Source: Candidatus Fraserbacteria bacterium
Lineage (GTDB): Bacteria; Bipolaricaulota; Bipolaricaulia; RBG-16-55-9; JAJCYT01
Direction: 5' to 3'
NCBI GenBank assembly: GCA_029262795.1
Contig: JAJCYT010000027.1
Location: 54,962-118,961 of the forward strand
Length of the DNA stretch: 64,000 bases
The translations under genes and the position numbers were made by a program. Under the pieces are notes generated by a model that was given only the letters and a program-made list of their open reading frames with translations, searched no databases and was not told where the DNA came from. Numbering within the stretch: position 1 is the stretch's first letter; each line of letters starts with the position of its first letter. Shown in pieces: positions 1,856 through 57,909 of the stretch.

Positions 1856-3700
1856 TCAGCGTTTGAGATACACCATCAGTGAAGCCAAATCCGCCTGAGA
1901 CACGCCAGGAATTCGTGAAGCTTGGCCGAGCGTTTCAGGTCGAACAGTCTTGAATTTTTCCCGACCTTCGCTGGAGATATTGGCTAGGTCATCGTATTGA
2001 AAACTAAATGGGATTCGTTTTTCTTCCAGTCGCTTTAATCGATCTATCTGATCCTGATGGCGATTGATGTAGCCTTCGTACTTGGCGCAGATGTCGAGTT
2101 CCTCTGCGATATCGGATGTGATGCCGTTGCGACTGGGGTCGAAGTCTGAAAGTGTGTAATAGTCGTATTCTGGGCGCTTGAGCAATTGGAACAGGCTGGA
2201 GCCAGGTTCAATGTTTTCGATACGAAGTCGATCCATATTGCCATTGCGATGAACTTTTGTGGTTCTTAGACGACTGAGCTCTGATTCAAGATTGAACTTT
2301 CGTTGCTGAAACATTTCATAGCGAACATCATCAACCAATTCAATTTGGCGACCATATTCAGTGAGCCGCAAGTCTGCATTGCCTTGGCGCAGAAGTAGGC
2401 GATATTCAACGCGGGAGGGCAGCATACGATAGGGTTCTTCTGTGCCTCTTGTGACAAGATCATCAATCATCACGCCGATGAAGGACTCCGTTCGTTTTAA
2501 GATCAAAGTTTCTTTATCACGAATCTTTTGCACAGCATTAATCCCTGCCATTAACCCTTGAGCAGACGCTTCTTCATAGCCTGTGGTGCCGTTGATTTGA
2601 CCAGCGAGATATAAGCCCTCCAACACTTTTGTTTCCAGTGTCGGCTTTAGTTGAGTGGGAAATGCGAAATCATATTCAACATCATAACCATAGATTTCAA
2701 TCACAGCTTCTTCTAATCCAGGGATACTGCGAATGGCTGCATCCTGAACTGCTGGCGGAGATGAGGTGGCAAAGCCACCGACGTACATGTGGTCTGTATC
2801 CACACCTTCGGGCTCCAAGAACAAGATATGAGAAGTACGTTCTGGAAAGCGCAAAATCTTTGTTTCAATTGAAGGGCAATAGCGTGGTCCTTCACCGCCA
2901 AGCGTTCCATTTTTGCCAGGATTTAGATGAAAAGCATCATGTAAAATTTGATGGGTTTCAGCATTGGATCGTGTGAGATAAACGGAATAATCTTTACTCA
3001 GTGAGACAGGTTCTGACATATAAGAAAAAGCCAATGGTTCATCTGCCGTTTCCTGAAGATTCATGTCTTTGAAATTGATTGAGTTTTTATTGAGGCGAGG
3101 TGTGGTGCCTGTGTTCAATCGACCCAATTCCAAGCCGGTTTCAAGCAAGGAATAAGACAGCCCAACAGCAGGTGGCTCACCTTCGCGGCCAGCATCAAAG
3201 GATTCATCGCCGCGATGACAGCGTCCTCTTAAAAAAGTTCCAGTGGTGACGATTACAGCTTGGGCGTGAATAATTTCACCGTTTTGCAATTCTACACCTG
3301 TGATTTTCCCATTTTTCCAAAGAAGCTTTTCGACCAGGCTTTCAACAAGAGTTAGGTTCTCTGTTTGTTCAAGGACTTGTCTCATTTCGGCTTTGTAGCG
3401 ATCACGATCAATCACGGCTCGAAGGGCATGCATGGCGGGACCTTTGCCCGTGTTGAGCGTACGGACGTTGATCATGGCCTTGTCGGTGACTTTACAGATT
3501 TCGCCACCGAGGGCGTCAACCTCACGCATCAACTGAGCTTTGCCAGGACCACCCATTGCGGGATTGCACGGCGCTTTGGCAATTTCATCCAGCTTGCCGG
3601 TGACGAGAGTGGTGTCACAACCCATACGTGCACTAGCCAATGCAGATTCGCATCCTGCATGGCCGCCGCCGATCACTAAAATTTCCGTGTGTCGATTCAT
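1856..3700 (-). CDS. mnmG: tRNA uridine 5-carboxymethylaminomethyl modification enzyme MnmG (GidA)
   Basis: FAD motif VIGGGHAGCE at N-terminus, 614 aa, conserved GidA core and C-terminal tRNA-binding region. Confidence 0.92.
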   Translation of the reverse strand: MNRHTEILVIGGGHAGCESALASARMGCDTTLVTGKLDEIAKAPCNPAMGGPGKAQLMREVDALGGEICKVTDKAMINVRTLNTGKGPAMHALRAVIDRDRYKAEMRQVLEQTENLTLVESLVEKLLWKNGKITGVELQNGEIIHAQAVIVTTGTFLRGRCHRGDESFDAGREGEPPAVGLSYSLLETGLELGRLNTGTTPRLNKNSINFKDMNLQETADEPLAFSYMSEPVSLSKDYSVYLTRSNAETHQILHDAFHLNPGKNGTLGGEGPRYCPSIETKILRFPERTSHILFLEPEGVDTDHMYVGGFATSSPPAVQDAAIRSIPGLEEAVIEIYGYDVEYDFAFPTQLKPTLETKVLEGLYLAGQINGTTGYEEASAQGLMAGINAVQKIRDKETLILKRTESFIGVMIDDLVTRGTEEPYRMLPSRVEYRLLLRQGNADLRLTEYGRQIELVDDVRYEMFQQRKFNLESELSRLRTTKVHRNGNMDRLRIENIEPGSSLFQLLKRPEYDYYTLSDFDPSRNGITSDIAEELDICAKYEGYINRHQDQIDRLKRLEEKRIPFSFQYDDLANISSEGREKFKTVRPETLGQASRIPGVSQADLASLMVYLKR

Positions 3701-4356: not shown

Positions 4357-4809
4357 ATGACTGAGATTCACGAAAAATTTATTCGCAAAAGTATCGAGCT
4401 TGCTCAAAGTGCGGTTGAAAAAGGCAATCACCCTTTTGGTGCATTGTTGGTTAAGGATGGAGAAATTATTCTCACGGCTGAAAATTCTGTTCATACTGAA
4501 AATGATTGCACTCGCCATGCTGAATTAAACCTGGTCAGCATGGCAGTGAGGCAATTTAATGCCGATACGTTGGCACAATCCACGCTTTACACCAGCACAG
4601 AACCCTGCGCGATGTGTTCAGGCTCTATCTATTGGTCTGGCATTTCGAGGGTGGTGTTTGCATGTTCTGTTGAAGGACTGGCAGAGATCTCCGGTGGAAA
4701 TTTAATGTTGCCTTGTCGCGAAGTGTTTTCGCGAGGCCAAAAAGAAATCGAGGTTTTGGGGCCTATTCTTGAAGCTGAATCCCAAAAGGTGCATCAGTCG
4801 TTTTGGTGA
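4357..4809 (+). CDS. CDA-fold nucleoside/guanine deaminase (GuaD/TadA-like)
   Basis: HAE...PCAMC zinc-binding motifs of cytidine/deoxycytidylate deaminase superfamily; strong resemblance to small bacterial guanine deaminases (…LYTS.EPC.MC…). Confidence 0.75.
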   Translation: MTEIHEKFIRKSIELAQSAVEKGNHPFGALLVKDGEIILTAENSVHTENDCTRHAELNLVSMAVRQFNADTLAQSTLYTSTEPCAMCSGSIYWSGISRVVFACSVEGLAEISGGNLMLPCREVFSRGQKEIEVLGPILEAESQKVHQSFW

Positions 4810-13950: not shown

Positions 13951-15042
13951 ATGAGCAATTGGCCACAGAAAATTTGTATGGTTGGCTTGGGATTGATTGG
14001 TGGGTCAATGGCAATGGCCATTCGCCGATTGCATCCCCATATAAAATTACATGCGTTCGATGTAGATGAAAAGACAAGAAAGTTGGCTGAAGATCGTGAT
14101 ATCGTACATCAATCATTTGACGATATCAGTCCAGCCGTGGCCGATTGTGACTTGATCATCTTGGCAGCGCCGGTGGATGCGATTGTGTCTCTGTTGCCAC
14201 AGTTGGCAAATTCAGTTAAATCAGATGCCATTGTTACTGACGTTGGTTCGACAAAGAATCGAATCTGTCAGGACGGTCAGGCTGTGTTGGGGGATCGCTT
14301 TGTTGGTGGACATCCTTTGGCAGGTGGGGAGCAAAACGGCCTGGAAGCCGCTGACCCCTTTTTATTTGAAAACGCTTTGTATGCATTGACACCTGTGGGG
14401 ACATCGACCGATTCAGCCGATCAACTTAAGGTGTTTATCGACTCTCTTGGCGCACAAACACTGATCCTTTCTCCACAGGACCATGACACTATTTTGGCCC
14501 ATGTCAGCCACTTGCCTCAGTTAGTGGCCACTGCTTTGTGTGATCTGGTGCGTGATCGTGCCACAACAAATCCACTCTATCGAGAATTGGCTGCAGGTGG
14601 ATTCAAGGATTTAACCCGTGTGGCTGCATCACCTTATTCGATGTGGAAATCCGTTTTGCGAGACAATCAGGCATTGATTGATTCTGCTTTGGCTGCACTA
14701 CAGGACCGAATTCAACTGATACGCTACGAACTTCGGGATCAGCAACTTGATGGCCGATTTGAACAGGCAGGGCAGTTTCGACGCGAACTGCCCTGGCGAT
14801 CGAAGGGGCTTTTAAAACCACTCCACCGAATTGCCCTGGTACTTGAAGATCGTCCAGGTGCGTTGGTTGAAGTGCTTCAAGTATTGGCTCAGCATGAGAT
14901 TAACTTAAAGGATTTAGAACTCAGAAAAACCCGTGAAGGCGATGGCAGCACGTTTCATATCTATGTTGAATCTAAGGATGCAGCAGCACAAGGCGCACAT
15001 CATTTGAAGCAAGCTGGATGGGAAGCCAATCAGGTCACTTAA
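13951..15042 (+). CDS. tyrA: prephenate dehydrogenase with C-terminal ACT domain
   Basis: N-terminal GLGLIGGS NAD motif, prephenate DH core, C-terminal ACT-like regulatory region. Confidence 0.85.
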   Translation: MSNWPQKICMVGLGLIGGSMAMAIRRLHPHIKLHAFDVDEKTRKLAEDRDIVHQSFDDISPAVADCDLIILAAPVDAIVSLLPQLANSVKSDAIVTDVGSTKNRICQDGQAVLGDRFVGGHPLAGGEQNGLEAADPFLFENALYALTPVGTSTDSADQLKVFIDSLGAQTLILSPQDHDTILAHVSHLPQLVATALCDLVRDRATTNPLYRELAAGGFKDLTRVAASPYSMWKSVLRDNQALIDSALAALQDRIQLIRYELRDQQLDGRFEQAGQFRRELPWRSKGLLKPLHRIALVLEDRPGALVEVLQVLAQHEINLKDLELRKTREGDGSTFHIYVESKDAAAQGAHHLKQAGWEANQVT

Positions 15043-16247
15043 TCAACCAGCCATTGAGATTTAAGTTCGCTCAACGTGCCCTCGACAATTGCCTGACGCA
15101 CATCTTTCATCAGGTTCATCAAGGTGTGCAAATTGTGAATGGTCACCAAATGCCCTGCCAATGGTTCTTTGGCGTGGAATAGATGGTTTAAGTATGCGCG
15201 TGAGTGGGTTTGACAGGTGGCACATTCACACTCAAGGTTGATAGGGTTTGGGTCTTTTTTGCATTTAGCGGAAGTGATATCCAGGCGATATTTATTTTCG
15301 CCTTTCAATAAAGCATTGCCATAACGTCCATAGCGGGTAGGAGTTACGCAATCGAACGTATCTACGCCACGCTCCACGATATCGAAAATGTTGTCAATCT
15401 CTCCGATGCCAAGTAGATGACGAGGTTTTTCTCTGGGCAAGAATGGTGTGATCCAATCCAACACCCGATAAATGTCTGACTTGGATTCGCCCAATGTGCC
15501 GCCAATGCCGATACCATGAAAGTCCATGTCGCCAATGAAAGTAGCACTTTTCTCCCTCAAGTCTTCGTGTGCGCCGCCTTGGATGATGCCGTAAAGCGCC
15601 TGATTTTTGATGTTCAATGATTGAAAATGGTCCAAGGCACGTTTGGCCCATCGATGAGTCAACTCAAGTGAATTGCTTGTGTAATCGTAATCATGAAACG
15701 GAGATGTGCATTCATCCAGTACGAGGATGATGTCTGACCCCAGTTTGTGTTGAATATCAATCGTGTTTTCCGGCGTGAACAAATGTTTGGAACCATCAAT
15801 GTGTGAACGAAAGTGTGCGCCTTCTTCGGTCAACTTCACTCTTGATTGACCTTTTGGTGTATGTCGATCAAGTTTTTTTCCTTCATCGCCAGGAAAGATA
15901 GAGGCCACTTTGCCCACACCATGCTCCATGCTGGCCCCGAGACTGAATACTTGAAAGCCACCAGAGTCGGTCATGATCACACCGTTCCAGCCCATGAACT
16001 TTTGCAACCCGCCCATTTCTGCAACAAGGTCTGCCCCTGGTCGCAGATGCAAATGATAGGTGTTGCAGATAATCATGGAGACATCGAGCGCGTTGATATC
16101 GCTGGGCTTCATTGTTTTGACGGTGGCTTGGGTGCCGACAGGAATAAATGTGGGTGTTTCCACCACGCCGTGAGGTGTTTCCAGCCGCCCGATACGGGCT
16201 TGGCTGTTTGGGTCTTCGTATTGGATATCAAATTTTAAAGCGCTCAT
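15039..16247 (-). CDS. tgt: queuine/preQ1 tRNA-ribosyltransferase
   Basis: canonical Tgt N-terminus (FDI…ARIGRLETPHGVVETPTFIPVGT), zinc site CECATC…H; ORF track offers a longer start at 16292 but internal Met at 16247 fits Tgt alignment. Confidence 0.9.
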   Translation of the reverse strand: MSALKFDIQYEDPNSQARIGRLETPHGVVETPTFIPVGTQATVKTMKPSDINALDVSMIICNTYHLHLRPGADLVAEMGGLQKFMGWNGVIMTDSGGFQVFSLGASMEHGVGKVASIFPGDEGKKLDRHTPKGQSRVKLTEEGAHFRSHIDGSKHLFTPENTIDIQHKLGSDIILVLDECTSPFHDYDYTSNSLELTHRWAKRALDHFQSLNIKNQALYGIIQGGAHEDLREKSATFIGDMDFHGIGIGGTLGESKSDIYRVLDWITPFLPREKPRHLLGIGEIDNIFDIVERGVDTFDCVTPTRYGRYGNALLKGENKYRLDITSAKCKKDPNPINLECECATCQTHSRAYLNHLFHAKEPLAGHLVTIHNLHTLMNLMKDVRQAIVEGTLSELKSQWLVD

Positions 16248-16248
16248 C

Positions 16249-17199
16249 TTAATAAAATACCGTTCTTGTTCGATGATAAGGTTTGGCATCAATGCCCTGG
16301 CTCAAATGCCACAGTAGCCAATCCACTTCAAAGCTTTTTAATTGAACATCATGGTCAGCAAATATTTGTTTTAATTGTTCCACTGCATGAATCGTAAATG
16401 CTCGAATCTCAATTTCTTCGCTAGACCCCATCGGTAATTCAATTTGGGCATCTACTTTTTCAGCCAGTGAAGGTTCATAGTGTAAGACTTTGTGTGCGCG
16501 AAGCAACTGTGGCAGTTTGTAATCGGCAAAGGCAGTAAGTTGATCGACATCGTGAAATTGTCCCCAACCCTGGCCTTTGAATGTGCCATATACATCTGCG
16601 CAAAAAATCTGAGCGCGTTTGTACAGGCATACATGAAAACCACGATAGTTGGCTTCATCGCGATAACTGACAAAATGATCGGCCAGCAGTTCGACCAAGC
16701 TGAGCACGGAGCCATTCGCCTGCGCCATCAGGTTGGTGATTTTGCCATCAAAGTTTTCCAAAAGACTTTTGCCTGCTTCGCGCAGCACCCTTAACCTGGA
16801 GTCTAGCAGAGGAATTTGTCCTTCTTCTCCATCCAGAAGTTTTTCAACTTGGGATAAATCCAACTGTGCCAGATAACTGGCATCATCCAACGGATCACCA
16901 CGCACAAAAGCATTTTTGAGGCAAGCGGCCAGGGCCATGTAGCCATCGAGTAATTGATCCTGGTGGCGATATTTCCAGCGAGGTTTGCCCCAGAAACAAA
17001 AGTTCAGAGTGTCTAACACAAATACATAAGCCAAAGTTCGATCTGTGCCATCGTTGAAGTGATCATCCGCACTCCATACAGACAAGGCGCTCACCTGATT
17101 GAGGTGGTTTTTTACGAAGCTCTGTGCTGCTTCAGCATCAAAACGGACAAATTGACTGACTTGGACAACTTGCTGAATGGAATCAAGAATGGGATGCAT
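16249..17199 (-). CDS. queuosine salvage protein, DUF2419/Qng1-like (queuosine 5'-phosphate N-glycosylase/hydrolase family)
   Basis: ~316 aa; conserved …LTAFADYKLPQLL… segment characteristic of DUF2419; immediately upstream of and co-directional with tgt. Confidence 0.6.
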   Translation of the reverse strand: MHPILDSIQQVVQVSQFVRFDAEAAQSFVKNHLNQVSALSVWSADDHFNDGTDRTLAYVFVLDTLNFCFWGKPRWKYRHQDQLLDGYMALAACLKNAFVRGDPLDDASYLAQLDLSQVEKLLDGEEGQIPLLDSRLRVLREAGKSLLENFDGKITNLMAQANGSVLSLVELLADHFVSYRDEANYRGFHVCLYKRAQIFCADVYGTFKGQGWGQFHDVDQLTAFADYKLPQLLRAHKVLHYEPSLAEKVDAQIELPMGSSEEIEIRAFTIHAVEQLKQIFADHDVQLKSFEVDWLLWHLSQGIDAKPYHRTRTVFY

Positions 17200-17211
17200 A
17201 ATTTTCCATGT

Positions 17212-17517
17212 TTAAAAATGCTTGAGATATTTGAGTGTTTCCATCAATTCTTCGACTTTTTCATCGCCTTGGCCTTGCTCAATGGCGGCAGCAATGCAGT
17301 GTTTCATGTGATTTTCACTAATGAGGTGAGCTACTTTACTGAGGGAGGATTGCACGGCTGCAATTTGCTTCAAAATGTCGATGCAATAACGTTCATCCTC
17401 AATCATTTTGTCAATGCCTTGGGTGTGACCAGTGACGGTTCGGATTTGATTGAGAATTTTCTTTTTGGTGTCTGGTTCTAAGCCCAAGCTGCCATGCGTA
17501 TCTGTGGATGAAGGCAT
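17212..17517 (-). CDS. csoR: CsoR-family copper-sensing transcriptional repressor
   Basis: MIEDERYCIDILKQIAAVQSSL and ENHMKHC segments reproduce the Cys…His-x3-Cys Cu(I) ligand set and core helix of B. subtilis/M. tuberculosis CsoR; 101 aa. Confidence 0.75.
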   Translation of the reverse strand: MPSSTDTHGSLGLEPDTKKKILNQIRTVTGHTQGIDKMIEDERYCIDILKQIAAVQSSLSKVAHLISENHMKHCIAAAIEQGQGDEKVEELMETLKYLKHF

Positions 17518-17815
17518 ATAAACTCCTTATGAAAATTCCTAAAGACAGTTTGAAGAAGAATCAGAAAAATTGCAAGGAATTTGATTTTGAGGACATCATT
17601 GGCTTTTTAAAAGATATAAAAACAAATACCAATTATGTCTAAAATACAACAATTTTAATGTGTGAAAAGCGCCTGCCAAAACCATTCTTGAAGGTTATCA
17701 AGGAGACTAGCATAGAAGGATACGTTTGTGTTAAACTTCCGTGAGAGCATAAAATCACATTATTTAGTTTGCAGTTATTGAAAAAATTATCAAGGGGTTT
17801 GGCGGTCATCATCTC

Positions 17816-18265
17816 ATGCGTTATTATCGAAAAACTTGTTCTAATTGCGATTGTTTTATCAACAAGCTTCCCGACGAAGCGTTTGCACAAGTACGATCTA
17901 AAACCTTTGAACCGGGCGAAGTTCTCTACACCGAAGGTGCTTTGTTGGATCGAGTGATGTTTGTGTGCGAAGGCACAGCACAATCGTTTCGCTTAAATAA
18001 AATAAAAAACGAAAAACAAATCCAGTCTTTTATCCAAACAGGCACCCTTTTAGGGATGCAGGAATTGATGGAAGCCAGCGCTTGTTGGACTCATTCTGTA
18101 GAAGCTGTAGAATCCTGTCAGGTGCTGATATTAGATGCTGAAGTGTTTATGGCCAGCCTTAACGTAACTGAAGTTTTAATGCAGGTGCTACATCACACCA
18201 TCGAACGTGAGCAAAGTGTGAAACGTCAATTGGTCAATGCTTTTGAAACAGAAGACTTATCTTAA
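17816..18265 (+). CDS. stand-alone cyclic-nucleotide-binding-like (Crp/Fnr effector) domain protein with N-terminal Cys cluster, no HTH
   Basis: EPGEVLYTEGALLDRVMFVCEGT beta-roll motif; CSNCDC near N-terminus; only 149 aa. Confidence 0.5.
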   Translation: MRYYRKTCSNCDCFINKLPDEAFAQVRSKTFEPGEVLYTEGALLDRVMFVCEGTAQSFRLNKIKNEKQIQSFIQTGTLLGMQELMEASACWTHSVEAVESCQVLILDAEVFMASLNVTEVLMQVLHHTIEREQSVKRQLVNAFETEDLS

Positions 18266-19311
18266 GCTGTCGGCAGTGCCAATGCGGGGGACGCAGACAT
18301 ATCCAACGAGCTTTGTTCACCCATTTTTTCATATCGATAACGGGCACAGGCAGCAATCATGGCTGCATTGTCCATGCATAACTTTAAGTCAGGGTAGTAA
18401 ACTGTTTTAGATTCCTTTTTTGCGTATAGATCCAGCTGTTGACGCAATCCAGAGTTGGCGGCCACGCCACCCACCACGACCAATTGATCCACCTTCTTTT
18501 GATTCGCTGATGCAAATAGTTTGGTGATCAATACATCCACCACCGCTGCCTGAAATGAAGCGGCTAAATCTTCCAGATGGGCATCAGGGTGATCGTCCAG
18601 ATAGTAGCGAATGGCAGTTTTTAGCCCTGAAAAACTAAAATCCAGACCTTTTTTGAGCATGGGTCTGGGAAAGTCAATGGCTTGAGAATTTCCCTGTTGA
18701 GCCAGTTTGTCAATCTGTGGTCCAGCTGGATAACCTAACCCCATTAATTTTCCCGCTTTGTCAAACGCTTCACCGGCGGCGTCATCACGAGTGTTGCCTA
18801 AAATTTCGTAATCGCCCCAAGCTTTGACATGAATTAAATTGGTGTGTCCTCCCGAAGCCAGCAATGCCAAAAAGGGAGGTGGCACGTTAGGAAAAGTGAG
18901 ATGATGTGCAAATAAGTGACCTTCCAAGTGATTGACAGCAATAAAGGGAATACCTAATCCGAGTGACAACCCTTGCGCAGCACTGAGGCCGACCAGCAGT
19001 GGGCCAATTAAACCAGGACCGTTGGTCGCGCCGATGAGGTTGATTTGCTCAAGCGAAACACCAGCCTCATCCAAAGCTGATTGAATGACAGGAGAAATTT
19101 TGACCACATGGTTGCGTGATGCCACTTCAGGTACCACACCGCCATATTGTGCGTGCAAATCGACTTGCGAGTAGACCACATTGGACAGCAATTCATGATC
19201 GTTTTTTAGCACTGCTGCAGCCGTTTCGTCACAAGAGCTTTCGATGCCCAGCGTAAAAAAATCTGTCATAAGTTCTCCATTGTCTAAGTGTGCTAGAATA
19301 TACACATCCAA
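18262..19311 (-). CDS. tsaD: tRNA N6-adenosine threonylcarbamoyltransferase TsaD (Kae1/YgjD)
   Basis: LGIESSCDETAAAV N-terminal motif, HxxGH metal site, 349 aa. Confidence 0.92.
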   Translation of the reverse strand: MDVYILAHLDNGELMTDFFTLGIESSCDETAAAVLKNDHELLSNVVYSQVDLHAQYGGVVPEVASRNHVVKISPVIQSALDEAGVSLEQINLIGATNGPGLIGPLLVGLSAAQGLSLGLGIPFIAVNHLEGHLFAHHLTFPNVPPPFLALLASGGHTNLIHVKAWGDYEILGNTRDDAAGEAFDKAGKLMGLGYPAGPQIDKLAQQGNSQAIDFPRPMLKKGLDFSFSGLKTAIRYYLDDHPDAHLEDLAASFQAAVVDVLITKLFASANQKKVDQLVVVGGVAANSGLRQQLDLYAKKESKTVYYPDLKLCMDNAAMIAACARYRYEKMGEQSSLDMSASPALALPTA

Positions 19312-22680: not shown

Positions 22681-23133
22681 TCAAATTTTGTCTATAGGAA
22701 GTTGTCCAGGTGGGTGGAACAAAATCTTTCTGGACCGTCCCTCAATGTCGAACACAATCCAGCGACTGTTTTTTGGCAATGCTTGTGGTACTTTGTCTCC
22801 CCATTCCACCGCGACGATGCCACCTGCATTCAGGTATTCATCAAAGCCAATCTCTTCAAGTTCTGATGCGTCATGAAGCCGATAAGCGTCTACATGAAAC
22901 AAAGGCACTTGACCTTCATATTCTTGAACGATCAGATAGGTGGGAGAGTTAACCGGTGATTTAACGCCAAGTCCTGTTGCAAGTCCTTGGATGAAGGTGG
23001 TTTTTCCTGCGCCTAAATCACCCACCAGCACCAGGCAATCGCCTGGTGCCAGTTGGTGAGCATATTGTTTACCTAATTCGATGGTGGCTTCTGCCGAATC
23101 AGTGACCACGATTTGATTAAACGTATCCTTCAT
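22681..23133 (-). CDS. tsaE: tRNA threonylcarbamoyladenosine biosynthesis ATPase TsaE (YjeE)
   Basis: Walker A GDLGAGKTTF, ~150 aa, typical TsaE. Confidence 0.85.
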   Translation of the reverse strand: MKDTFNQIVVTDSAEATIELGKQYAHQLAPGDCLVLVGDLGAGKTTFIQGLATGLGVKSPVNSPTYLIVQEYEGQVPLFHVDAYRLHDASELEEIGFDEYLNAGGIVAVEWGDKVPQALPKNSRWIVFDIEGRSRKILFHPPGQLPIDKI

Positions 23134-26021: not shown

Positions 26022-26250
26022 CTTCTAACCCCCAACCCCTTTACATAAGGGGGCACGATTGGGCTGCGGGGATGGATTCTTTGATATTCGATAGTTTATT
26101 CTTTTCGGTTTCTTTTATAGGAGTATTAAGGCCTTTTTGGTTTTCAGTTAGAATATGCAGAAAAGTTGAGAACAGACATTTTCAGGCATATCGTAGCCCC
26201 CTTTTGATTTTAGAAGGGATCCCTTTCTAGATAAAGGGGGGGGAAAGCTT
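26022..26250. mobile_element. MITE-like repeat, copy B (left TIR intact, right end degenerate)
   Basis: left end AACCCCCAACCCCTTTACATAAGGGGGCACGATTGGG and internal GCGGGGATGGATTCTTTGAT are homologous to copy A at 57689; right end GTAGCCCCCTTTT…AAGGGGGGGG partially matches. Confidence 0.5.
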
Positions 26251-31975: not shown

Positions 31976-32653
31976 ATGCGTGTCGATATCATCACCATCT
32001 TTCCCGATATGCTGACTGGTTTTTTTGAGTACGGTGTGCTCAAGGCCGCACGTGAAGCGGGTTTGATTGAAATCAACATGCACAGCCTTAGGGATTACAC
32101 TGACGACAAACATCGTCAAGTCGATGACCGTCCTTATGGCGGCGGTGCGGGCATGGTGTTAAAAGTTGAGCCGTTGGTGCGGGCCGTCGAAGCGATTTCT
32201 CAGCCAGATAAAAAAGTTCAGGTGATTTTAACCTCTGCACAAGGCAAACGCCTTACTCAGAGCGTGGCGAAAACCTTTTCGAGCTTTGATCAGTTGATCC
32301 TTATCTGTGGCCGTTATGAAGGCGTGGATGAGCGGGTGATGTCTGTGGTCGATGCCGAAATTTCTATAGGCGATTACGTGCTCAGTGGTGGCGAAGTGGC
32401 TGCTGCCACGATCACTGAGGCGGTTTGTCGTATGACGCCTGGCGTGGTGGGCGATGAGGAATCGGTGGTGACCGATTCGTTCTATCAGGAGCAACTGTTG
32501 GGTGTGCCGCAGTACACGCGTCCGCCAGAATTTCGTGATCTGAAAGTGCCGGATGTGTTGTTGTCGGGCAATCACGAGCAGATTGCCACTTGGCGACGGG
32601 AGCAATCTCTTAAAAAAACGCTGGAAAATCGCCCCGATTTGTTAAAAAACTAG
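31976..32653 (+). CDS. trmD: tRNA (guanine37-N1)-methyltransferase
   Basis: [13 protein letters not shown]-terminus and SPOUT knot motifs ([23 protein letters not shown]). Confidence 0.9.
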
Positions 32654-32672
32654 GGGTTTTAAATTAAAAAAC

Positions 32673-33236
32673 ATGGGAAATCTTTACGCAGGTATTCTTC
32701 ATTATCCAGTTAAAAATTCAAAAGGAAACATTGTTGCCACCGCATTAACGGGGCTGGATTTGCATGACATTGCACGCAGTGCCAGAACGTTTGAACTGGC
32801 CCAATATTATGTGATGACGCCTCTAACCACCCAGCGCCGCATTGCCAAGACCATGGTCGAATACTGGAAAGACCCTGGGGGCAGGGCTTCCAACCGATCT
32901 GAAGCCTTGAAAAACGTGCAGGTGCTTGCTACTCTTGAGGACAGTTTGGTCGAGATACATTCGCGCGAAACAGAAAGGCCTTTGCTCGTTGCCACCTCGG
33001 CACGTGACGTGCCTCTGACTCAGATGAGTTACGAAGCCTTACGGACACAAATTGAGACCGAATCTCGGCCTGTTTATTTGTTGTTCGGCACCGGCTGGGG
33101 GCTTGCAGATGAATTGCTGCCCAAGCTGGATTGTGTGCTTCCGCCCATTCTGGGGCCAGGAGATTTCAATCACCTTTCTGTCAGAGCAGCTGCAGCCATC
33201 ATTTTTGATCGGTTGCGCGGATTAAAGGAGACTTAA
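32673..33236 (+). CDS. uncharacterised SPOUT-like putative RNA methyltransferase occupying the position where rimM is expected
   Basis: C-terminal …YLLFGTGWGLADELL… and …NHLSVRAAAAIIFDRL… resemble SPOUT motifs II/III (…LVFG.E..GL… / …SLNVS.A.AIvLYE…); N-terminus unlike RimM. Confidence 0.4.
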   Translation: MGNLYAGILHYPVKNSKGNIVATALTGLDLHDIARSARTFELAQYYVMTPLTTQRRIAKTMVEYWKDPGGRASNRSEALKNVQVLATLEDSLVEIHSRETERPLLVATSARDVPLTQMSYEALRTQIETESRPVYLLFGTGWGLADELLPKLDCVLPPILGPGDFNHLSVRAAAAIIFDRLRGLKET

Positions 33237-34437: not shown

Positions 34438-34544
34438 TTAATTAAAAACATGTGAACCTTTTCGACTAAAACATAAAAACTTGCTTTCGCAAACTCGTTT
34501 GAAAATTCTTAAGTCAATTTGTAAGCTAGCTTTAACAAAAAGCA

Positions 34545-34632
34545 ACGGGGAGCCTGAACATGACAGGCTGAGAGGAAGCTTCGGCTTCGACCCTTAGAAC
34601 CTGATCCGGATCATGCCGGCGGAGGGAATGCA
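34545..34632 (+). promoter_or_regulatory. TPP (THI-box) riboswitch
   Basis: …GGGGAGCCTG…CTGAGAG…ACCCTTAGAACCTGATCCGGATCATGCCGGCGGAGGGAA matches THI element consensus (CUGAGA … ACCUGAUCUGGAUAAUGCCAGCGUAGGGAA); sits ~115 nt upstream of thiamine-binding protein gene. Confidence 0.8.
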
Positions 34633-34747
34633 ATGGTTTCTCAAAACATTTCAACACACACTCCACTAAAAGCACAACACAAACTGGTTCCTTGGGTCAC
34701 TCATCTGTTTTGCTGACGGCGCTTCAAATCAACCTTGAGGTGATGTC

Positions 34748-35776
34748 ATGCGCTTACTTTCATTTAGTCTGATTGCTCTGTTTTTGCTGAGCCTGGGAGC
34801 ATTGGGACAGGAAAACACATTGGTGATTTACACCTACGACAGTTTTGTGTCGTTTGGTCCGGCCACGGAGATTGAAGCACGCTTTGAAGCCGAAACAAAT
34901 GCGGATGTTCAGTTTGTGGCAACGGACGATTCCCGCTCCATGCTGGCCCGATTGTTGACCGAGCGCGACAGTGGCGGCACGCCTGCAGATGTGTTCATTG
35001 GCGTGGAAGTCAACGATTTGTCTACAGCGACGGAAGACGGCGCGTTTATTTCCTTGAACGAAGATGAGATTCCTGCCCTACAGCAGATTGACTCGACTAT
35101 TCGTTTTGACGCGCAAAATCGATTGCTTCCTTACGAGCATGGATTTATTACGCTGGTTTATGATGCTGAAGCCATCAGCGAAGATGAGTTGCCCCAAACG
35201 TTTGCAGACTTGGCTGACCCTCGCTTTCGTGGAAAACTGTTGGTGCAAGACCCTCGAACCAGCAGTCCGGGGTTGAGTTTTTTGCTCTGGACAATCAATC
35301 AATTTGGAGATCCTGGCTATCTGGATTATTGGCGCGAACTGTTTCCCAACATCCTGACGGTGACGCCAGGCTGGACAGAGGCGTTTACGTTGTTTCTCCA
35401 AGGAGAAGCGCCGATTCTGGTTAGCTTTTCTACCGATCATGCGTTTGATGTGATCATCAACGACAGTGACCGCAATCGCATATTGCTGTTGGAAAACCAA
35501 GGGTATCGAACCATTTTTGGCGCCGGTGTGGTGGATACCAGTGATCAGGTGGATTTGGCCAAACAGTTTGTTAATTTTCTGTTGAGTGAAGAAATACAAA
35601 CCCTATTACCCACCAGTGAGTGGATGTTTCCTGCCAATCCCAATGCGTTATTGCCTGTGGCGTTTTATCAAAATGCAGTGCGTCCGCCTGTGGCTGCCTT
35701 CGTTGATGCGGATACGGTAAGTGATAATTTGGACCGTTGGCTGCGCGCATGGGCAAACTTGGCTGTGGGTCAGTAA
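34748..35776 (+). CDS. thiB: thiamine/TPP ABC transporter periplasmic binding protein
   Basis: signal peptide; blocks LVIYTYDSF, DPRTSSPGLSFLLW, GWTEAFTLFLQGE parallel E. coli TbpA (LTVYTYDSF, DPRTSTPGLGLLLW, GWSEAYGLFLKGE). Confidence 0.85.
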   Translation: MRLLSFSLIALFLLSLGALGQENTLVIYTYDSFVSFGPATEIEARFEAETNADVQFVATDDSRSMLARLLTERDSGGTPADVFIGVEVNDLSTATEDGAFISLNEDEIPALQQIDSTIRFDAQNRLLPYEHGFITLVYDAEAISEDELPQTFADLADPRFRGKLLVQDPRTSSPGLSFLLWTINQFGDPGYLDYWRELFPNILTVTPGWTEAFTLFLQGEAPILVSFSTDHAFDVIINDSDRNRILLLENQGYRTIFGAGVVDTSDQVDLAKQFVNFLLSEEIQTLLPTSEWMFPANPNALLPVAFYQNAVRPPVAAFVDADTVSDNLDRWLRAWANLAVGQ

Positions 35777-57688: not shown

Positions 57689-57909
57689 GCTTTCAAATCC
57701 CCCAACCCCCTTGAGATCAAGGGGGCACGATTGGTTTGCGGGAGGATATTCTGATTTGAGTAAGTTGATTCTTTCTAAAAAGGAGAACTATCAAAAGAAA
57801 AATGTTTTGTTCTTGAACTTTGCCAAGAAAAATATGCTTAAAAGCAGAATCCACCTTCGAAGTCCAAATCGTGCCCCCTTTAGAAAAGGGGGTTGGGGGA
57901 TTTGAAGCC
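57689..57909. mobile_element. MITE-like repeat, copy A (best preserved; ~45-bp terminal inverted repeats each containing a C5/G5 hairpin)
   Basis: left GCTTTCAAATCCCCCAACCCCCTTGAGATCAAGGGGGCACGATTGG; right CCAAATCGTGCCCCCTTTAGAAAAGGGGGTTGGGGGATTTGAAGCC is its near-perfect reverse complement; no coding capacity. Confidence 0.6.

Follow-up and report, generated by a model that had tools for sequence, protein, structure and literature searches.

Copper-sensing repressors of the CsoR family are known from autoregulated operons such as the cso operon of Mycobacterium tuberculosis and copZA of Bacillus subtilis, and linkage with copA and copZ is frequent in the family, if not strictly defining. Salvage of queuine, the free base of queuosine (Q), by bacterial Qng1 (DUF2419) is reportedly treated in Zallot 2014. 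The reference organism for Qng1, Sphaerobacter thermophilus, is without the genes for de novo Q synthesis, and D231 and the C-terminal tyrosine of its enzyme (StQng1) are catalytic (Hung 2023, PMC9881137). Queuine-salvaging tRNA-guanine transglycosylases (TGTs) typically carry the pocket signature GG[LS][AS]G (PMC11570991), and direct salvage of queuine is described for Tgt of Chlamydia trachomatis (Yuan 2019, as cited in passages of PMC11570991 and PMC11130926). QueD2 is Zur-regulated under zinc limitation (PMC9894224, PMC11672702). Here, we report a csoR–qng1–tgt cluster in a 64,000-nucleotide (64-kb) stretch of a Candidatus Fraserbacteria genome (assembly GCA_029262795.1, contig JAJCYT010000027.1, positions 54,962 to 118,961 of the forward strand); the whole of this stretch is called the window, and positions are those of the window. 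The reading that we favor, and that we consider somewhat better than an even bet, is a constitutive csoR–qng1–tgt operon whose CsoR works in trans, on copper genes at other sites of the genome, while Qng1 and Tgt salvage queuine. What looks new here is csoR at the head of a known Qng1–tgt salvage module; the cluster otherwise looks largely ordinary.

Probable queuine salvage by Qng1 and Tgt

An earlier note on this DNA had read three genes on the minus strand in the order csoR, qng1, and tgt, and the open reading frame (ORF) listing and the sequence agree with its positions to the nucleotide (Table 1). The two gaps that it gave are also seen in the sequence: exactly 12 nt lie between the stop codon of csoR and the start of qng1, and the qng1 stop codon TAA (16251–16249) is followed by a single G and then by the tgt ATG at 16247. 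The ORF listing holds in addition an alternative TTG start of tgt further upstream, at 16292. A terminator between csoR and the downstream genes was looked for, and a site scan returned neither terminator-like nor promoter-like sites at the csoR–qng1 or the qng1–tgt junction; two terminator-like matches on the minus strand both lie within qng1. Because the gaps are only 12 nt and 1 nt long and the junctions carry no such site, csoR, qng1, and tgt are probably one tightly packed, co-transcribed unit.

The three identities proposed in the same note (CsoR, DUF2419/Qng1, and Tgt) are borne out by Pfam and NCBIfam matches. Tested by hidden Markov model, the DUF2419 assignment holds, i.e., Qng1 matches PF10343 over its full length with E = 2e-88, and its residues 4–316 match StQng1 (PDB ID: 7UK3) with E = 2.5e-84. 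D226, in the motif FADYK, corresponds to StQng1 D231, and the terminal Y316 corresponds to StQng1 Y323; the catalytic Asp and the C-terminal Tyr are both invariant among 24 homologues. Tgt scores 470 bits to TIGR00430, for which the cut-off is 306.75, and in the alignment with Zymomonas mobilis TGT the catalytic Asp102, Asp156, and Asp280 (motifs TDSGG, LDEC, and FDCV) are all matched, as is the zinc site CxCxxC...H (motif CECATC...H).

The substrate pocket of Tgt is where it departs from the preQ1-type enzyme. Its specificity loop reads GG-TLG-E, one residue fewer than the preQ1-type GGLAVGE, and the Val233 position is gone. A loop of the form GG[STA][LV]G-x-SK is common to all 36 of the 36 Tgts encoded beside Qng1 in the fetched loci (Qng1-linked Tgts). 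Relative to Z. mobilis Tgt, there is also an insertion of ∼30 amino acids (xxEHGVGKIASIFPEE...) after GGFQ, which recurs in all Qng1-linked Tgts examined, and at position 235 the Qng1-linked enzymes frequently have Arg, Lys, or Ser in place of the Glu of Z. mobilis. The shortened pocket together with the ∼30-residue insertion would mark the Qng1-linked Tgts as a distinct subfamily. The loop GG-TLG-E has the length and shape of the published GG[LS][AS]G signature, but fills both variable positions differently, with T and L. Since the shortened loop is present in all Qng1-linked Tgts and the signature is that of published queuine-salvaging enzymes, Qng1 and Tgt are best read as the known bacterial two-gene module of queuine salvage, a pairing that is common (Qng1–tgt adjacency in ∼36 of 80 species-representative bacterial Qng1 loci, ∼45%) and already described. 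Queuine salvage had been proposed in the earlier note, and the catalytic residues of Qng1 and the shortened Tgt pocket support it.

In this module, Qng1 would hydrolyze queuosine-5′-phosphate, coming from tRNA turnover or from imported queuosine, to the free base queuine. Tgt would most likely insert queuine directly at position 34 of tRNA-Asp, tRNA-Asn, tRNA-His, and tRNA-Tyr, because its pocket is one residue shorter and the bulky Val233 position is missing. The Pfam sweep found no que genes (queA, queG/H, preQ1 synthesis) in the 64-kb window, and no Q or queuine transporter is encoded in the csoR–qng1–tgt cluster. The likeness to the S. thermophilus system extends over full-length Qng1 homology, the catalytic Asp, the C-terminal Tyr, the adjacent tgt, and a Tgt pocket without the Val233 position; the differences are that csoR heads the cluster here and that the loop is GGTLG rather than the commoner GGSLG. 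With C. trachomatis Tgt, the window enzyme shares a pocket signature off GGLAVG that is predicted to accept queuine. C. trachomatis, in contrast, has a YhhQ/QPTR transporter and no Qng1, whereas the window cluster has Qng1 and no transporter, and the ∼30-residue insertion of the window Tgt is specific to the Qng1-linked subfamily. If the ordinary reading holds, the shortened GG[ST]LG pocket and the insertion may serve as a mark for annotating queuine-salvaging bacteria in metagenomes.

A predicted copper sensor and no CsoR operator in the window

CsoR matches PF02583 (DUF156) with E = 1.3e-27 (96.5 bits, the cut-off being 22.8), and its best PDB matches are copper-sensing CsoRs, namely those of Geobacillus (4M1P, 4e-21) and M. 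tuberculosis (2HH7, 8e-20), with that of Thermus (3AAI) also among them. The Cys-His-x3-Cys set of Cu(I) ligands, which the earlier note had called intact, is so: C45, H70, and C74 align exactly with M. tuberculosis C36, H61, and C65. Y44 and E90 align likewise with Y35 and E81, and all five Cu(I)-sensing determinants, i.e., the x-C-H-C ligands and the second-shell Tyr and Glu, are thereby present; Y44, C45, H70, and C74 are invariant among 39 homologues. Judged by its sequence, this CsoR is predicted to be a true Cu(I)-sensing repressor. The core helix had been described as almost identical to that of B. subtilis CsoR; strong similarity to the Bacillus type is found, but near-identity is not, with ∼15 of 23 residues matching in a hand count from the alignment with Geobacillus CsoR 4M1P (the comparison being Geobacillus, not B. 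subtilis). The residues of helix 1 and helix 2 are nearly the same in the CsoRs of the window's own clade and in copA-linked CsoRs, so one would not expect operator specificity to have changed.

What a CsoR operator looks like in this branch of the family was read from relatives. Eighty loci with relatives of the window CsoR were collected, of which the three closest are Qng1-linked and the other 77 (out-of-clade) are 49–66% identical. A CPx P-type ATPase or HMA-like motif was seen in ∼43 of these 77 by a simple motif scan that gives some false positives, and the loci without such a match are mostly short contigs. The out-of-clade promoters have the form TTGACA-17-TAnnnT, followed directly by a pseudo-palindrome of a C-tract and a G-tract, such as TTACCCCACCCCCAGTGGGGTAA or CCCACCCC-N4-GGGGTGGG. 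Of 58 out-of-clade homologues, 33 carry a strict box of this kind in the last 100 nt, and inspection by eye raises the number to ∼44; in the locus that we label L169, for example, TTGACA-17-TATACT is followed by the perfect box ATATCCCACCCCAGGTGGGGTGGGATAA and then by the gene order HMA–YHS–x–csoR.

The same search gave nothing in the clade of the window CsoR, from which ten contigs were compared upstream of csoR. None of the ten has a CsoR box within 300 nt upstream of the gene, and none was found across ∼80 kb of fetched clade loci. The earlier note had pointed to a GC-rich CsoR operator upstream of 17517; a search that tolerated three mismatches gave no C-tract/G-tract pseudo-palindrome, either there or elsewhere in the 64-kb window. 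The window also has no P-type ATPase or HMA motif, and its Pfam sweep returned no copper gene. Several candidates were rejected along the way. C/G-tract hairpins at 26026, 57699, and 57865 are ends of a repeat resembling a miniature inverted-repeat transposable element (MITE), with 9–10-nt loops and different flanks. The sequence ACCCCGCATGGGGT inside the tgt of clade contig L082 codes for a conserved TPHGVV peptide, and the DNA is not conserved in the window. An "HMA" match at the end of clade contig L086 is a false positive, the ORF being a zinc-type alcohol dehydrogenase. Separately, L002, which has diverged furthest among the clade members, carries a half-box-like CCACCCCACCC immediately upstream of its csoR −35 (∼245–260), perhaps the remnant of an ancestral CsoR operator.

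In place of the box, 9 of the 10 clade upstream regions (window, L085, L082, L087, L086, L002, L167, L170, and L172) carry the element TTGCAw-N17-(C/G)A(A/C)ACT (TTGCAw-N17-nAmACT), with a spacing of exactly 17 nt and 15–32 nt before the start codon; only L165, in which csoR comes after an ABC-transporter operon, departs from this. Neither the spacer nor the flanks are conserved, over a range of clade GC from ∼43% to 70%, and the window version, TTGCAA-N17-CAAACT, occurs once in the window. We infer that this element is csoR's own box-free, sigma-70-like promoter, a putative assignment made from the alignment of these regions. It travels with csoR even in L167, where qng1 is absent. A second sigma-70-like site, TTGGCA-N16-TAAAAT (Table 1), is a possible alternative promoter. 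A sigma-54 reading of the TTGCA motif was rejected by eye, there being no GG element at −24, and an 8-bp inverted repeat, AAATTCCT/AGGAATTT, that brackets the window promoter is shared with the near-identical L085 but with no other clade member. No preQ1 or other riboswitch was found in the csoR leader: Rfam gave no match there at gathering thresholds (in the whole window, only the thiamine pyrophosphate (TPP) riboswitch at 34536), and positions 17450–17850 gave noise only at E up to 10. Six leaders compared had no conserved or unusually stable fold.

Set beside the autoregulated csoR–cop operons (L169, L103, L123, L129, and others), the window cluster has the same protein family, Cu(I) ligands, second-shell residues, and promoter-proximal csoR. 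It differs in having no GC-rich operator, in having tRNA-modification salvage genes downstream rather than copA/copZ, and in a TTGCAw/nAmACT promoter as opposed to TTGACA/TAnnnT followed by the box. Zur–QueD2 is a documented metal-sensing regulon tied to Q-tRNA supply; there, however, a zinc sensor acts on the de novo pathway with a demonstrated operator and regulon, whereas the window pairs a copper sensor with salvage, and no operator was found. In the reading that we favor, the unregulated, box-free promoter would drive csoR, transcription would read through into qng1 and tgt, and the orphan CsoR would, as we assume, most likely repress copper-efflux genes elsewhere in the genome in trans.

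Inheritance of the gene order and rival explanations

Among named relatives, those nearest to Qng1 and CsoR come from Bipolaricaulota metagenome-assembled genomes and from such genomes labelled "Thermotogae." The csoR–qng1 order with 7–15-nt gaps is also present in L001, L085, L082, L087, L170, L171, and L172. Among these csoR–qng1(–tgt) loci, L085, a 3.2-Mb metagenome contig, is near-identical to the window (CsoR 95% identical); L082 and L087 stand further off (CsoR 73–74%); and L170, L171, and L172 are more distant (CsoR ∼70%, Qng1 ∼51–54%). In L086 (CsoR 81%), a 126-nt repeat insertion separates csoR and qng1, and in L002 (Qng1 54%) one extra gene does so. In all, at least five lineages of a single uncultured clade keep the order. 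Outside this clade it is absent, and among 80 representative Qng1 loci a CsoR gene lies within 6 kb of qng1 in just 1. Most of the csoR–qng1 contigs also share their flanks, i.e., TsaD and the divergent gene for a cyclic nucleotide monophosphate (cNMP)-binding domain, so much of the conservation reflects common descent. In L167 (CsoR 77%), the gene after csoR encodes a DsbD_2 membrane protein and there is no qng1, and in L165 (CsoR 71%), csoR is the last gene of an amino-acid ABC-transporter operon. In the reading that we favor, the placement of csoR at the head of the salvage operon is a clade-specific, inherited gene order, unusual, and csoR is probably an incidental neighbor there. If this reading holds, neighbors of a regulator gene are not to be taken as its regulon without an operator check.

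Two intervening sequences deserve description in their own right. The 126-nt insertion of L086 (5895–6020) consists of paired hairpins resembling repetitive extragenic palindromic elements (GTCATCCCTGCGAAAGCAGGGATC and ATTCCCGCCTTCGCGGGAATGAC). The extra gene of L002 (726–2012) encodes a 428-amino-acid secreted protein with no Pfam match at 1e-4, in which PHP-like His/Asp motifs are seen by eye.

Several points weigh against an unregulated operon with a trans-acting CsoR and queuine as the base salvaged. Tgt retains Cys158 of the preQ1-type pocket, and one Qng1-adjacent transporter moved preQ0/preQ1 and not queuine (PMC11130926); because of both, the substrate of Tgt is not settled. As copA, copZ, and the CsoR box are all unseen in the 64-kb window, the trans-acting regulon is assumed. 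The −10 hexamer CAAACT makes a weak sigma-70 site, and in principle the element may serve as an operator instead of a promoter; a diverged operator may be compatible with the absence of a canonical box. The csoR–qng1 order with its operon-like gap survives across 70–95% identity in CsoR, 51–90% in Qng1, and ∼43–70% GC, and L002 retains the order though its sampled flanks differ (no upstream cNMP-domain gene and no downstream tgt). To neighborhood methods, such persistence is a hint of functional coupling.

The alternative that survives best, although we regard it as unlikely, is pure adjacency, in which qng1 and tgt have their own promoter inside or just after csoR and share no transcript with it. 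That 79 of 80 bacterial Qng1 loci have no csoR nearby agrees with it, as does the parting of csoR and qng1 by the 126-nt repeat-containing spacer in L086 or by a whole gene in L002, from which it follows that uninterrupted coupling is not essential. Against this, with gaps of 7–15 nt, eight contigs have no space for a promoter unless it lies within the csoR coding sequence, the site scan returned no promoter-like match on the minus strand inside csoR, the junction has no terminator, and the only terminator-like match in the L086 spacer is weak.

Copper-gated queuine salvage, which the earlier note had raised as a question, strikes us as quite improbable. Here, CsoR would repress its own operon through a diverged operator overlapping the promoter, and Cu(I) would derepress Qng1 and Tgt. 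The promoter-proximal csoR is tightly coupled to qng1–tgt in at least five lineages, and the conserved promoter hexamers are under selection and could be bound by a regulator. Links between Q and metals are also on record: copper induces queE and yhhQ in Erwinia and an Escherichia coli tgt mutant alters cusCFBA expression (PMC9508795), Q-tRNA is lowered by metal starvation (PMC9894224), and a further hint of a link between Q and metal homeostasis has been published (PMC11672702). The locus itself argues otherwise. The C-tract/G-tract dyad is absent from all ten clade promoters while most out-of-clade homologues have it, and given the near-identical helix-1 and helix-2 residues, a change of operator would be unexpected. 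Conservation is lacking in the spacer and in the stretch beyond the −10, the usual place of CsoR boxes. The same promoter precedes csoR and unrelated genes in L167, without qng1, and csoR of L165 closes an ABC operon. The arrangement does seem undescribed, as the earlier note had said; full-text literature searches found nothing joining CsoR and Q salvage.

A broader form of recruitment, in which the copper sensor was taken on as lead gene of a queuine-salvage operon in this one clade and works through a non-canonical site or together with the Cys-rich cNMP-domain protein, is in our view a long shot. If true, this would be a first case of a copper sensor controlling tRNA-modification salvage and would add to the emerging links between queuosine and metal homeostasis; it would make a direct circuit from metal sensor to tRNA modification, and Q-tRNA levels would follow copper stress, and with them the decoding of His, Asp, Asn, and Tyr codons. 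Most improbable of all is that this CsoR-family protein senses another signal (Ni/Co, persulfide, or aldehyde) and controls Q salvage or other genes: PF02583 also covers RcnR, InrS, CstR, and FrmR, NCBIfam matches to RicR, FrmR, and RcnR are at sub-threshold scores only, and the nickel sensor InrS (5FMN, E = 4e-15) is among the PDB matches, but the x-C-H-C fingerprint is complete, down to its second-shell Tyr and Glu, and does not vary, copper sensors come first among the PDB matches, the nearest out-of-clade homologues lie in cop operons with CsoR boxes, and the alignment of 39 homologues has no conserved N-terminal His for a Ni/Co site.

Features and surroundings of the cluster

The coordinates of the cluster and of the elements around it are collected in Table 1.

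Table 1. Features of the csoR–qng1–tgt cluster and its upstream region (window positions)
Feature	Position	Strand	Description
csoR	17212..17517	−	101 aa; gene of a CsoR-family, Cu(I)-type repressor; first in the cluster
qng1 (DUF2419/Q_salvage)	16249..17199	−	316 aa; predicted queuosine-5′-phosphate N-glycosylase releasing queuine
tgt	15039..16247	−	402 aa; tRNA-guanine(34) transglycosylase of the Qng1-linked subfamily
AAGGAG, Shine-Dalgarno of csoR	17523..17528	−	Read from sequence; GGAGG/AAGGAG equivalents in all clade members
Promoter-like element TTGCAA-N17-CAAACT	17547..17575	−	−35 at 17575–17570, −10 at 17552–17547; no CsoR box
Second sigma-70-like site TTGGCA-N16-TAAAAT	17652..17679	−	10 of 12 matches; recognized only in near-identical L085
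Motif AGTkTArCACAAA	17725..17737	−	Palindromic core GTGT-A-ACAC; conserved in the csoR/cNMP-gene intergenic region
cNMP-binding-like protein, stand-alone	17816..18265	+	149 aa; divergent from csoR; PF00027 E = 2e-13, no helix-turn-helix match

The cNMP-domain gene is a constant divergent neighbor of csoR in the clade (L082, L085, L086, L170, and L172), and the protein is conserved in these contigs, including a CxxC near the N terminus and two further Cys; a role as a sensor domain for a metal or an Fe-S cluster is conceivable. The intergenic motif AGTkTArCACAAA is present in the window, L085, L082, L087, L086, L167, L170, and L172, at a varying distance from the csoR promoter. The window holds a single copy, with 0.02 matches expected by chance. 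On the opposite strand, the motif probably serves the divergent cNMP-domain gene as its extended −10 (TGnTACACT); it is also kept in L167, where no divergent gene was called.

The window is unusually rich in genes of tRNA/RNA modification (MnmG, a TadA-like deaminase, TsaD, TsaE, TrmD, and a PF09936 RNA methyltransferase; 1856–3700, 4357–4809, 18262–19311, 22681–23133, and 31976–33236), so the Q-salvage genes sit in translation-related housekeeping surroundings. The MITE-like element spans 57697–57902 (∼200 bp) and has 38-bp terminal inverted repeats (ATCCCCCAACCCCCTTGAGATCAAGGGGGCACGATTGG and its inverse); one such end also stands alone at 26026–26062, and each end folds into a C5/G5 hairpin. 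The TPP riboswitch (34536–34644, plus strand, 72.8 bits) lies upstream of a gene for a solute-binding protein (34748–35776), which presumably serves in the uptake of thiamine or a precursor.

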